This document shows, one piece after another, positions 2,915 through 13,066 of a DNA stretch of 25,120 bases. A program made the translations under genes and the position numbers. The notes under the pieces are model-generated. The model was given only the letters and a program-made list of their open reading frames with translations. It was not told the origin of the DNA and did no database searches. Source of the DNA: an uncultured Muribaculaceae bacterium (lineage in GTDB: Bacteria; Bacillota_I; Bacilli_A; RF39; UBA660); the NCBI GenBank assembly GCA_964600095.1, contig CAZRIC010000002.1, forward strand, positions 1 to 25,120, in the 5' to 3' direction. How positions within the stretch are numbered: position 1 is the first letter of the stretch; each line of letters opens with the position of its first letter.

Positions 2915-2924
2915 CAAGACTATT

Positions 2925-3016
2925 CCTCATCTTCCGACAACGTCGCAGGATTTAGCACCTAACTAAATAGGTTGCTGGACTTCATAGGGCCTGTCCCTCA
3001 GTCTCTCTTCATAAGG
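2925..3016 (-). promoter_or_regulatory. SAM-I (S-box) riboswitch aptamer
   Basis: Minus strand reads CCUUAUGAAGAGAGACUGAGGGACAGGCCCUAUGAAGUCCAGCAACC...AGGUGCUAAAUCCUGC...GGAAGAUGAGG, matching the SAM-I consensus (kink-turn, GCAACC, GGUGC, GAUGAG); lies directly upstream of metK. Confidence 0.93.
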
Positions 3017-3024
3017 TTTCTTAT

Positions 3025-11007: not shown

Positions 11008-11967
11008 TTAAATATTTTGAATAGATAAAATTTCAATTTGATTAGATAAAAGAGTAGGATTATTCATTTTTGACTTTGTTAAATCTGTTGTTAAATATTT
11101 TTTGAAATCATCTGCAAATATAGTAACAGCATTATCATTATTATCAGAAGCAATAATAGAAGCTAGTAGATTAGCACCACTAGATATTCCAACTCCTAAA
11201 CCAAATTTTTTGGCTAAAATTCTAGACATATTAATGGCATCCTCATCATTGATAGAAATAATTTTATCAATCGCTTCTCTATTTACAATGGTTGGGATAA
11301 AATCATCTCCAATTCCTTCAATTTTATGGCTTCCAGTAGCAAATTTATTAGATAAAATCGGTAGTTGTGAAGGTTCTAAAGCAATTATTTTAGCATTTTT
11401 ATGAATTTCTTTAATTCTTTTAGATATTCCCATTAAAGTTCCACCTGTACCAATCCCACTGACAACAGTATTAATTTTTGAAACTTGTTTGACAATTTCC
11501 AAACCAGTCGTTTCATAGTGAGATTCTATATTCCTTATATTATCAAATTGATTAGGTCGAAATCCATTAATCTTTTTAGCAAGTATGTCAGCTTGTCTAA
11601 TTGCTTCTAGAAAACCACCTTCTTCTTTAGAAATTAAATGTACAGTGGCACCATATAATTTCATAATTTCTATTCTTTCTTTACTAGCCCAGTCTGGCAT
11701 AAAGATATGTACGGGATGGTTAAAATAGGCTCCTAAGGCAGCAAAAGATATTCCTGTATTACCACTGGTTGCTTCTACTATTGTCATTCCTGGTTTTAAA
11801 GTACCATCTTCATACGATTTTTTAATAATATAATATGCTAATCTATCTTTAATACTTCCTGTATAATTATAATATTCTAATTTAGCATATACATTTACTA
11901 TTTTTTGATTATATTTCGCTATTATTTTTATCATAGGTGTATTTCCTATTAAGTTTTCTATATTCAT
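11008..11967 (-). CDS. cysK: Cysteine synthase family (O-acetylserine sulfhydrylase-like, PLP)
   Basis: IGNTPM, KLEYYNYTGSIKDR (PLP lysine), EATSGNTGI, GIGTGGT, HKIEGIG, GISSGAN. Confidence 0.93.
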   Translation of the reverse strand: MNIENLIGNTPMIKIIAKYNQKIVNVYAKLEYYNYTGSIKDRLAYYIIKKSYEDGTLKPGMTIVEATSGNTGISFAALGAYFNHPVHIFMPDWASKERIEIMKLYGATVHLISKEEGGFLEAIRQADILAKKINGFRPNQFDNIRNIESHYETTGLEIVKQVSKINTVVSGIGTGGTLMGISKRIKEIHKNAKIIALEPSQLPILSNKFATGSHKIEGIGDDFIPTIVNREAIDKIISINDEDAINMSRILAKKFGLGVGISSGANLLASIIASDNNDNAVTIFADDFKKYLTTDLTKSKMNNPTLLSNQIEILSIQNI

Positions 11968-12046
11968 GATTTTCCTTCTTTCTATTATATTTTATATGTA
12001 AAGTAGGAAAACAACATCGTATAGAATTTACTAATTTTTTGAACAT
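11909..12046 (-). CDS. Candidate second uORF (45 aa, Cys-Cys) overlapping the cysK start out of frame
   Basis: AAGGAGG, 7 nt, ATG; MFKKLVNSIRCCFPTLHIKYNRKKENHEYRKLNRKYTYDKNNSEI*; stops 59 nt inside cysK. Confidence 0.45.
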   Translation of the reverse strand: MFKKLVNSIRCCFPTLHIKYNRKKENHEYRKLNRKYTYDKNNSEI

Positions 12047-12096
12047 AAAAAGACCTCCTTAATAATGAATGTATAAACTCACTATTAAGGAAGTCT
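12047..12096 (-). terminator. Attenuator terminator of the cysK leader
   Basis: AGACUUCCUUAAUAGUGA pairs with UCAUUAUUAAGGAGGUCU (18 bp, 2 G-U), 10-nt loop, then UUUU. Confidence 0.85.
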
Positions 12097-12123
12097 ATTA
12101 TCCCAATTTTTATGAGTTTACAC
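12071..12123 (-). promoter_or_regulatory. Antiterminator helix of the cysK leader
   Basis: GUGUAAACUCAU (12123-12112, includes the leader stop codon) pairs over 12 bp with GUGAGUUUAUAC (12082-12071). An inner GGGA/UUCC helix sequesters more of the terminator 5' arm. Confidence 0.75.
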
Positions 12124-12177
12124 GAAAAAAAGAATATAGCAATAACAACAACAATTTGCAAATACTCTTTTTTTCAT
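12118..12177 (-). CDS. Cys-rich leader peptide of cysK (19 aa)
   Basis: AAGGAG SD about 8 nt upstream; MKKRVFANCCCYCYILFFV*; Cys at codons 9, 10, 11 and 13. Confidence 0.85.
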   Translation of the reverse strand: MKKRVFANCCCYCYILFFV

Positions 12178-12211
12178 TGTAATCTCTCCTTTTTTTTTCT
12201 TGCGTGAATAA

Positions 12212-12240
12212 ATTATATCATAGAAAGCTTATTTATGCAA
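12212..12240 (-). promoter_or_regulatory. sigmaA promoter of the leader-cysK transcript
   Basis: TTGCAT (12240-12235), 17 nt, TATAAT (12217-12212), with extended TG. Confidence 0.8.
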
Positions 12241-12247
12241 AGATGCT

Positions 12248-13066
12248 TTATTTCTGTTTGCTTTTTCTTTCTTGATAATGATTATATAAGTTATAGTATT
12301 TATAATGATTTTCAATAGGTTGGAGTTCTTGTGTATCATTTTTTAATTCTTCTTGATAATCCTCTAATAATTCAAGTTCAAATTCAGAAGGAGAACCACT
12401 ATATCTTCTAGAATTTAAGCTTTTCGTAATAGAATAATTTTGAGGATAGAAATTTGTATTTCTTCCAAATTGGTCAAATGTCGATAAATTAACACCCGGA
12501 TCATGGCTATAACCACTTTTAACAGCTTTTGAAATACTATCAAAATATAAATCTATATCACATTCTCTTACTCCATAAAAAATGTCTACCATTTTACCAC
12601 TTACTTCGTCTATCATGGCATTACCTATTAATATAATTCTTTCCCCATTTTTTAATTTAGGATGTCTTCCATCGCCATAACCAAAATATAATTTTTCTGT
12701 TTCTCTTTTATATTCTTCACTAATAGGTAATCGTCCTTTTCTTATAGCATCTAATTTAGGAATAATTACTCTAATGCAAAAGGGTTTAGAATAATCTGGT
12801 AAAGTATAGATGATGGCAGCTTCTGATAATGGTCTTCTATATTCAAGTACCTGTTTTATTCTATCATCTCGTTCTACAAATGACATTTCACCTTTAATAA
12901 CAAATTCACTTTGTGGTAGTTCTGTCCATCGTCGAATATATTTTCCATTTTTTACTCTTTCTTTTATTTTAGCAGGAATATAGGACGTAGAGTGATGAAA
13001 ATAGGTAAAATCATATGGAATAATAATCGAATCCATTTTTCTTAAAATTTCTATTTTTTCTTGCAT
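12248..13066 (-). CDS. Hypothetical protein
   Basis: 272-aa ORF with AGGTG SD and an upstream extended -10; no family recognised. Confidence 0.75.
   Translation of the reverse strand: MQEKIEILRKMDSIIIPYDFTYFHHSTSYIPAKIKERVKNGKYIRRWTELPQSEFVIKGEMSFVERDDRIKQVLEYRRPLSEAAIIYTLPDYSKPFCIRVIIPKLDAIRKGRLPISEEYKRETEKLYFGYGDGRHPKLKNGERIILIGNAMIDEVSGKMVDIFYGVRECDIDLYFDSISKAVKSGYSHDPGVNLSTFDQFGRNTNFYPQNYSITKSLNSRRYSGSPSEFELELLEDYQEELKNDTQELQPIENHYKYYNLYNHYQERKSKQK

Follow-up and report, generated by a model that had tools for sequence, protein, structure and literature searches.

A conserved cysteine-codon upstream ORF as a candidate translational attenuator of cysK in RF39-like Bacilli

The window studied here is a 25,120-nucleotide (nt) stretch of contig CAZRIC010000002.1, from an uncultured bacterium of the RF39 lineage of Bacilli (GenBank assembly GCA_964600095.1). 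On its minus strand, a cysK gene is preceded by two short upstream open reading frames (uORFs). The promoter-proximal one, leader ORF 1, contains a run of Cys codons and belongs to a transcription attenuator. The second, uORF2, starts just beyond the terminator of that attenuator and reaches into the beginning of cysK. Comparison with relatives supports uORF2 as a genuine, selected and Cys-linked cis element that stands in series with the Cys leader-peptide attenuator. Its first eleven codons are conserved as a peptide that ends in an Arg and a Cys residue, and the RNA immediately 3' of its Cys codons pairs, in predicted folds, with the Shine-Dalgarno sequence (SD) of cysK. Probably, though by no means assuredly, uORF2 is the sensor of an autonomous translational attenuator of the erm type that reports the supply of Cys-tRNA(Cys).

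Relatives were gathered by a DNA search with the leader and from the 80 closest cysK homologues in species-representative genomes, which are mostly metagenome-assembled genomes (MAGs) of uncultured gut Bacilli or 'Tenericutes' such as Ca. Coprovivens, Ventrenecus and Mycoplasma sp. CAG:776. The DNA search finds the leader in four species of the window's genus and in four further genera of its family. In all, uORF2 is present in 31 distinct cysK loci, which represent at least five genera of the family as well as other MAGs. The consensus of its product is M-F-K/I-K-x-V-N-S/T-I-R-C. Val-6 is encoded by all four GTN codons, Ile-9 by ATA, ATT or ATC, and Phe-2 by TTT or TTC, and position 8 is Ser or Thr through TCT, AGT, ACT or ACG. 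The entropy of third codon positions is about twice that of first and second positions. This third-position variation behind conserved residues argues for selection on the peptide. Mean pairwise nucleotide identity is 0.81 over uORF2 codons 1 to 12, against 0.60 for the first 12 codons of cysK, 0.56 for the cysK ribosome-binding site (RBS) region and 0.37 for the terminator region.

The most constant feature is Cys-11, which occurs in all 31 loci. The Arg-10 codon is CGA in 30, the start codon is ATG in 29, and an AGGAGG-type SD precedes the ORF in 26. Residue 12 is Cys in 22 loci and otherwise Tyr (5), Pro (2), Phe (1) or Arg (1). The original prediction stressed a pair of Cys codons and expected it to be conserved with the SD, the start codon and the overlap with cysK. 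The SD, the ATG and the first Cys codon largely bear this out, but the pair and the overlap, which is found in only 13 loci, do not, and what is retained is one Cys codon with CGA before it. Genomes with the motif have one copy of it, invariably at cysK. Its distribution is patchy: of 401 genomes of the family scanned for the pattern, only 6 contain the true motif. In a metagenome pattern scan, one of 80 loci (L198) among the matches listed is a true copy and the rest are chance matches. No NCBIfam family matches the peptide at E-values up to 1.

The same comparison bears on whether uORF2 has any role at cysK. It might be non-functional, as a chance ORF or a gene remnant, or it might encode a secreted or cytoplasmic peptide that acts in trans and has nothing to do with cysK control. 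The C-terminal two thirds of the 45-residue product in the window indeed lack conservation. However, synonymous variation accompanies the conservation of codons 1 to 11 in the 31 loci, the ORF is exclusively linked to cysK, and its length (15 to 45 codons) and tail vary in such a way that the tail follows the RNA strand complementary to the cysK SD rather than any protein sequence. We therefore regard this whole class of explanations as scarcely credible. The chance ORF and the remnant of a gene once controlled by this leader, the latter offered in the original prediction as an alternative, are ruled out by the codon-level conservation together with the single copy per genome at cysK.

The elements of the leader, in the order in which they are transcribed, are as follows.

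12212-12241, minus strand: sigma-70-type promoter of the cysK leader transcript (TTTGCA, 18 nt, TG-TATAAT), assigned by consensus match only
12117-12176, minus strand: leader ORF 1, 19 codons with Cys at four of five consecutive positions, preceded by an SD; sensor of the upstream transcription attenuator
12047-12096, minus strand: intrinsic terminator, consisting of a 20-base-pair hairpin (12096-12051) and a U-run (12051-12047), with the uORF2 SD in its 3' arm
12054-12060, minus strand: uORF2 SD (AAGGAGG), within the terminator 3' arm and followed by the 7-nt spacer TCTTTTT and the ATG at 12046
11909-12046, minus strand: uORF2, 45 codons here and 15 to 45 in relatives, with codons 1 to 11 forming the conserved stretch
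12011-12019, minus strand: proposed stall site, CGA (Arg-10), TGT (Cys-11), TGT (Cys-12), suggested by codon conservation; CGA is a rare codon
12000-12017, minus strand: anti-SD strand, core GUUUUCCU at 12012-12005, inside uORF2 and immediately 3' of the Cys codons, with predicted pairing to the cysK SD
11968-11983, minus strand: cysK ribosome-binding region, SD AAGGAA at 11977-11972, predicted to be sequestered by the anti-SD strand
11008-11967, minus strand: cysK, the regulated gene, 319 amino acids, ATG at 11967, encoding a pyridoxal phosphate enzyme of the CysK/CysM family

The perfect AAGGAGG in the terminator's 3' arm, the ATG 7 nt further on and the 45-codon ORF with UGU-UGU at codons 11 and 12 all lie where the original prediction had placed them. 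The promoter agrees with the consensus at 10 of 12 positions and has an extended -10 TG. In the window, the uORF2 start lies ~170 nt into the transcript behind a strong SD, which excludes leaderless initiation. The terminator hairpin has an energy of about -29 kcal/mol (78-nt fold) and is the sole terminator-like site in 11800-12400, where shuffled sequences predict 0.1. No terminator-like site occurs 3' of the uORF2 start (11800-12046), and the antiterminator/terminator pair belongs to the separate leader ORF 1. We considered uORF2 itself as a transcription attenuator and rejected this idea, since neither a terminator nor an antiterminator follows it.

A masking element that the original prediction had missed is, according to the folds, the anti-SD strand 3' of the Cys codons. 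In the minimum free energy (MFE) fold of the window, the cysK SD is paired with GUUUUCCU, immediately after these codons, and the MFE fold of every one of the 31 loci likewise pairs it with an anti-SD strand. Measured from the first base of Cys codon 11, the nucleotides that pair with the SD core have a median position of +4 to +10 nt. Duplexes between each locus's own anti-SD strand and RBS have a mean energy of -11.9 kcal/mol, compared with -6.6 for shuffled strands, and 25 of the 31 have z-scores below -1.64. For two control windows the duplex energies are -3.6 and -2.5 kcal/mol. Own pairings are also stronger than cross-locus pairings in 5000 of 5000 permutations, a result that points to co-variation, with the qualification that the sequences are related and non-independent.

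The position of this helix relative to the Cys codons is such that a ribosome halted there would open it. The mean probability that the cysK SD is unpaired is 0.18 in the free RNA and rises to 0.76 when the footprint of a ribosome with its A site on codon 11 is masked; with the footprint four codons further upstream it is 0.20. Thus the earlier proposal that a stall at the Cys codons frees the cysK initiation site agrees with the model. The predicted anti-SD geometry is that of erm/cat-type translational attenuation.

The helix also changes how the OFF state is to be explained. In the window, uORF2 crosses the cysK SD and ATG out of frame and stops 59 nt inside cysK, exactly as first described, and the original prediction derived repression from this overlap: when Cys is plentiful, uORF2 ribosomes would run across the cysK SD and ATG and block initiation, and an upstream stall would merely remove this traffic. 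However, the uORF2 stop lies 3 to 31 nt upstream of the cysK ATG in 17 of the 31 loci, overlaps it in 13, and is missing in one, where the two frames are fused. In the nearest relative (81% CysK identity) the stop is 17 nt upstream, and a 1-nt gap in the alignment of this stretch is what sets the window, with its 45 codons, apart from it. The overlap is therefore best viewed as an accident of certain lineages. Elongating ribosomes could add repression in the lineages of the 13 loci that have it, but occlusion would leave the conserved anti-SD complementarity unexplained, and we consider it very unlikely to be the conserved OFF mechanism.

A Cys-run leader ORF 1, and with it the attenuator, is present in 26 of the 31 uORF2 loci. 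In 24 of these 26, the AGGAGG of uORF2 resides in the 3' arm of the terminator with a T-rich spacer after it. The terminator hairpin always prevails at equilibrium, leaving the uORF2 SD with a mean unpaired probability of 0.07 (~0 in the window), and the terminator stays closed even when a ribosome is masked on the leader ORF 1 Cys codons. Equilibrium folding cannot model the kinetic antitermination decision, so these values show only that relaxed RNA hides the uORF2 SD. Consequently, the earlier statement that read-through transcripts expose this SD can stand in a kinetic sense only, for as long as the antiterminator would hold the terminator's 5' arm. The broader proposal of a second, translational Cys checkpoint in series with the attenuator fares better, in that a conserved Cys-linked ORF has its SD in nearly all of these terminators, but the checkpoint would operate through the anti-SD helix and not through the overlap.

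Four loci (L055-L058) have no attenuator. Here a uvrA-like gene ends 13 nt before uORF2, which together with the anti-SD strand lies ~70 nt upstream of cysK. Leader ORF 1 and the terminator are missing, the SD is weak (AAAGGA or AAAGA), and three of the four have Cys-Tyr instead of Cys-Cys. The uORF2/anti-SD module therefore appears to be autonomous.

These loci also bear on the idea that uORF2 is a translational coupler, such that any ribosome passing through it melts the anti-SD helix and lets cysK initiate or re-initiate. Translation of cysK would then report only whether the uORF2 SD is exposed, and with it the state of the antiterminator, and the Cys codons would not be a sensor. Such a role would suit an SD that lies inside a terminator arm, a cysK SD that is masked in free RNA, and stop codons that overlap the cysK ATG in four loci and lie 3 to 31 nt upstream of it in others. 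Nonetheless, stop positions ranging from +31 to -62 are poor for coupling, L055-L058 have no terminator to report on, and, with Cys codons in the way, coupling would weaken at the very time that cysteine is required. Coupling also does not explain the invariant Cys-11, CGA-10, the ten-residue peptide or the placement of the anti-SD strand within the footprint of a stalled ribosome. We judge it unlikely as the general function.

If uORF2 is instead a Cys-tRNA sensor, the following mechanism can be envisaged. In relaxed leader RNA, the cysK SD would be paired to the anti-SD strand a few nt 3' of Cys codon 11, and cysK would be off. When Cys is plentiful, a ribosome on uORF2 would read the ten conserved codons (M-F-K-K-x-V-N-S/T-I-R), pass on and terminate, after which the helix would re-form and cysK would be poorly translated. 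When Cys is scarce, we infer that the ribosome waits while CGA (Arg) occupies the P site and UGU (Cys) the A site, so that its mRNA channel covers the anti-SD strand. The cysK SD, ~25 nt beyond the edge of the ribosome, would become single-stranded and could recruit 30S subunits while the stall lasts. Where the attenuator is present, initiation at uORF2 would require read-through RNA and probably also an antiterminator that still occupies the 5' arm; once the terminator hairpin had re-formed, the uORF2 SD would be locked away. The resulting relay would lead from read-through to a brief loading of ribosomes on uORF2, then to a renewed test of Cys-tRNA at codon 11, and finally to the closing of both hairpins. 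Cys-tRNA would thus be checked twice in series, and the message would shut itself off when cysteine returns.

Conservation of the peptide itself raises a different possibility. The ten residues that would be within the exit tunnel at the stall are conserved at the peptide level, and some loci have only one Cys codon; F-K-K-x-V-N-S/T-I-R could thus be an arrest peptide that responds to a small molecule in the tunnel or the peptidyl-transferase centre, in the manner of TnaC or SpeFL, with the Cys codon as part of the arrest motif. Yet arrest by free cysteine would turn a cysteine-supplying gene on at high cysteine, which is opposite to the upstream Cys-run attenuator. The peptide does not resemble known arrest peptides, it matches no protein family, and no result points to a ligand. 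This explanation seems quite unlikely to us, though slightly less so than occlusion.

Several observations weigh against a Cys-tRNA sensor that works through the anti-SD helix. In nine of the 31 loci the site contains just one Cys codon, scant provision for a sensor of starvation alone unless the peptide or CGA makes it more sensitive. In loci whose uORF2 stop lies near the cysK start, translational coupling could be the cause of any positive effect of uORF2. The uORF2 SD is buried in a very stable hairpin at equilibrium. RNAalifold, run on a plain MAFFT alignment of 29 leaders, returns no consensus helix, because the register of the helix shifts between lineages, and support for the helix comes from energy and permutation tests on related, non-independent sequences. 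Single loci also depart from the pattern: L078 has CAA in place of CGA at codon 10, and L102 has neither an SD nor an ATG at the usual position.

The near-invariant CGA is unusual in its genomic context. In the window's genome, CGA represents 6.8% of Arg codons and AGA 62%, and the sole detected Arg tRNA able to read CGA in this 76%-complete assembly is tRNA-Arg(ACG), which does so through inosine:A wobble. AGA is one synonymous step from CGA, yet it is found at codon 10 in none of the 31 loci, even as neighbouring codons vary synonymously. Pairing does not explain the invariance of CGA, because the partner sequences around the cysK start vary.

A similar arrangement occurs upstream of metY in Clostridia. 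Most of the small Clostridia MAGs with a cysK homologue yielded no metY, and the 30 metY loci fetched were taken from other Clostridia. Four of them (L281, L284, L287 and L288) have a short ORF with the sequence ...R-F/N-G-R-M-C... located 60-90 nt before metY, and the Arg codon before Met is CGA in all four. We did not find this leader family in the literature searched. The occurrence of CGA before the presumed sensor codon in two unrelated leader families suggests a functional role, for example in slowing decoding in the A site, which for bacteria we put forward as a hypothesis. In yeast, I:A wobble at CGA stalls ribosomes.

One may go a step further, though we regard this step as possible rather than probable. 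The nascent chain F-K-K-x-V-N-S/T-I-R and the P-site CGA might act together as a sensitiser that, by strongly slowing decoding in the A site, makes a single Cys codon a sharp sensor of Cys-tRNA, with CGA before the sensor codon used independently by the Clostridial Met/Cys leaders. If so, placing CGA before the sensed codon would be a general, undescribed design rule for amino acid-sensing leader peptides in Firmicutes. Combined with the SD-in-terminator relay, the sensitiser would give each transcript a brief, self-closing window of cysK translation.

The product of the regulated gene best matches TIGR01136 (cysKM, 293 bits) and TIGR01139 (cysK, 278 bits), both under the curated cut-offs. Serine O-acetyltransferase (cysE, TIGR01172) was not detected in five leader-carrying genomes (G000, G011, G013, G016 and G008), four of which are 91-94% complete. 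The CysK-like enzyme may use a substrate other than O-acetylserine to form cysteine. The window has a second control element for sulfur amino acids besides the cysK leader, namely an S-adenosylmethionine (SAM) riboswitch of the S box class (73.8 bits; 2924-3017, minus strand) upstream of a 380-amino-acid ORF (2859-1717).

No Rfam family matches the cysK leader at the gathering threshold. RF01483 (rli56, a Listeria cis-regulatory RNA) scores 31.9 bits, below its 47-bit gathering threshold, with an E-value of about 0.001, and this sub-threshold match (12124-12024, minus strand) extends from the last part of leader ORF 1 across the terminator into uORF2, of which it includes codons 1 to 8. The 5' end of the rli56 model resembles the conserved CGUGUAAACUCAUAA at the leader ORF 1 stop, and rli56 might be a Listeria relative of the cysK attenuator. 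The 3' end of leader ORF 1 (12117-12135, minus strand, and homologues) encodes ...F-F-R-V-N-S-stop or ...F-F-V-stop; its nucleotide sequence (TTTTTTCGTGTAAACTCATAA) is conserved and forms the 5' strand of the antiterminator. In three loci (L089, L104 and L110) the MFE structure is the antiterminator and not the terminator. Upstream of 20 cysK homologues without uORF2, neither a T-box nor a riboswitch was found.

Some loci show variant arrangements. In L064 (286-342 and upstream), uORF2 continues in frame into cysK without an intervening stop codon, which would give CysK an N-terminal extension that starts M-F-K-K-M-V-N-T-I-R-C-C-C. In L080 and L086 (about 1479-1500), a terminator-like hairpin whose 3' arm contains AGGAGG is directly followed by the ORF of the cysK homologue itself, which starts with M-F-K-K-N, and the upstream short ORF lacks Cys codons; this arrangement may be derived by loss or fusion of uORF2. 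In two Clostridia MAGs (L106 and L109), the region 60-240 nt upstream of cysK contains a terminator and a different Cys leader, M-I/L-K-K/E-Y-x-S-I-N-C-C-C, whose K-K..N-S-I-x-C-C pattern is similar to uORF2. Between this terminator and cysK, L109 has a second short ORF, M-N-K-V-C-C-N-Y-L-N-I; this would represent a two-uORF design of its own.

Amino acid-sensing leader peptides are a textbook case of transcription attenuation. To our knowledge, translational versions are documented essentially only for cysteine in mycobacteria. In our searches of the literature for a Firmicute cysteine leader or translational attenuator, only the mycobacterial work was found. uORF2 would widen the range of Cys-sensing translational attenuation to include gut bacteria of the Firmicutes type (RF39-like Bacilli). 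It would also show a translational check in series with a classical attenuator on one leader, giving a two-step test of the same signal and a self-locking mRNA, and its CGA-Cys pair and conserved peptide offer a testable hypothesis for how one sensor codon can suffice. For annotation, these uORFs of 15 to 45 codons, which are currently unannotated, would account for cysK control where no T-box or riboswitch is found.

Among known systems, leader ORF 1 and its terminator (12096-12047) are of the trpL, hisL and pheL type, in which a ribosome on a leader ORF senses the supply of charged tRNA. uORF2 would share this principle but would act on the cysK SD, and thus on translation rather than transcription. 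The Clostridial metY leaders share with uORF2 a short ORF before a sulfur-amino-acid gene and the rare CGA immediately 5' of presumed sensor codons. They differ in that their peptide cannot be aligned with M-F-K-K-x-V-N-S/T-I-R-C, their sensor codons are Met-Cys, the downstream gene is metY, and they belong to another class of bacteria.

The comparison with ermC/ErmCL, cat-86 and cmlA draws on established knowledge and on the discussion in 10.1101/834739. These leaders resemble the proposed arrangement of uORF2 in having a short, SD-led leader ORF, a stall ~9-11 codons in and a conserved nascent peptide near the stall, and in that the stalled ribosome covers the 5' strand of an SD-sequestering hairpin, an event that for uORF2 is computed only. 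For a signal-dependent arrest at a defined codon of uORF2, the CGA-UGU codons and the conserved peptide give indirect support. In our analysis, uORF2 is a leader ORF with its own RBS next to the regulated gene, and the downstream SD is predicted to be masked by the strand that the ribosome footprint covers. In contrast to the erm type, uORF2 would presumably respond to a shortage of charged tRNA rather than to an antibiotic within the tunnel, it precedes a biosynthetic gene, and a single predicted masking helix takes the place of the four-segment erm leader.

By analogy, the closest experimentally studied system is that of the mycobacterial attenuators of the 'Cys ribulon', leaderless short ORFs (sORFs) with polycysteine tracts, which uORF2 would resemble in its working without being a member. 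In Mycobacterium smegmatis, a stall of ribosomes within such a polycysteine sORF opens the duplex that otherwise sequesters the RBS (Canestrari et al., bioRxiv 10.1101/834739). Both designs have a short ORF with Cys codons before a cysteine-metabolism gene and a duplex that masks the RBS, and in both a pause for Cys-tRNA relieves attenuation, which for uORF2 is a prediction. The mycobacterial sORFs, however, are leaderless, have runs of at least two Cys codons and lack a conserved peptide. A run of two or more consecutive Cys codons is seen in the window (TGT-TGT) and in 22 of the 31 loci, whereas in nine the Cys is followed by Tyr, Pro, Phe or Arg. uORF2 is SD-led and has one invariant Cys (often two), a conserved ten-residue N-terminus and a near-invariant rare CGA before the Cys codon (30 of 31). 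In most loci it follows a transcription attenuator and has its SD hidden in the terminator of that attenuator, and it occurs in Bacilli rather than Actinobacteria, with no sequence relationship seen between the two.

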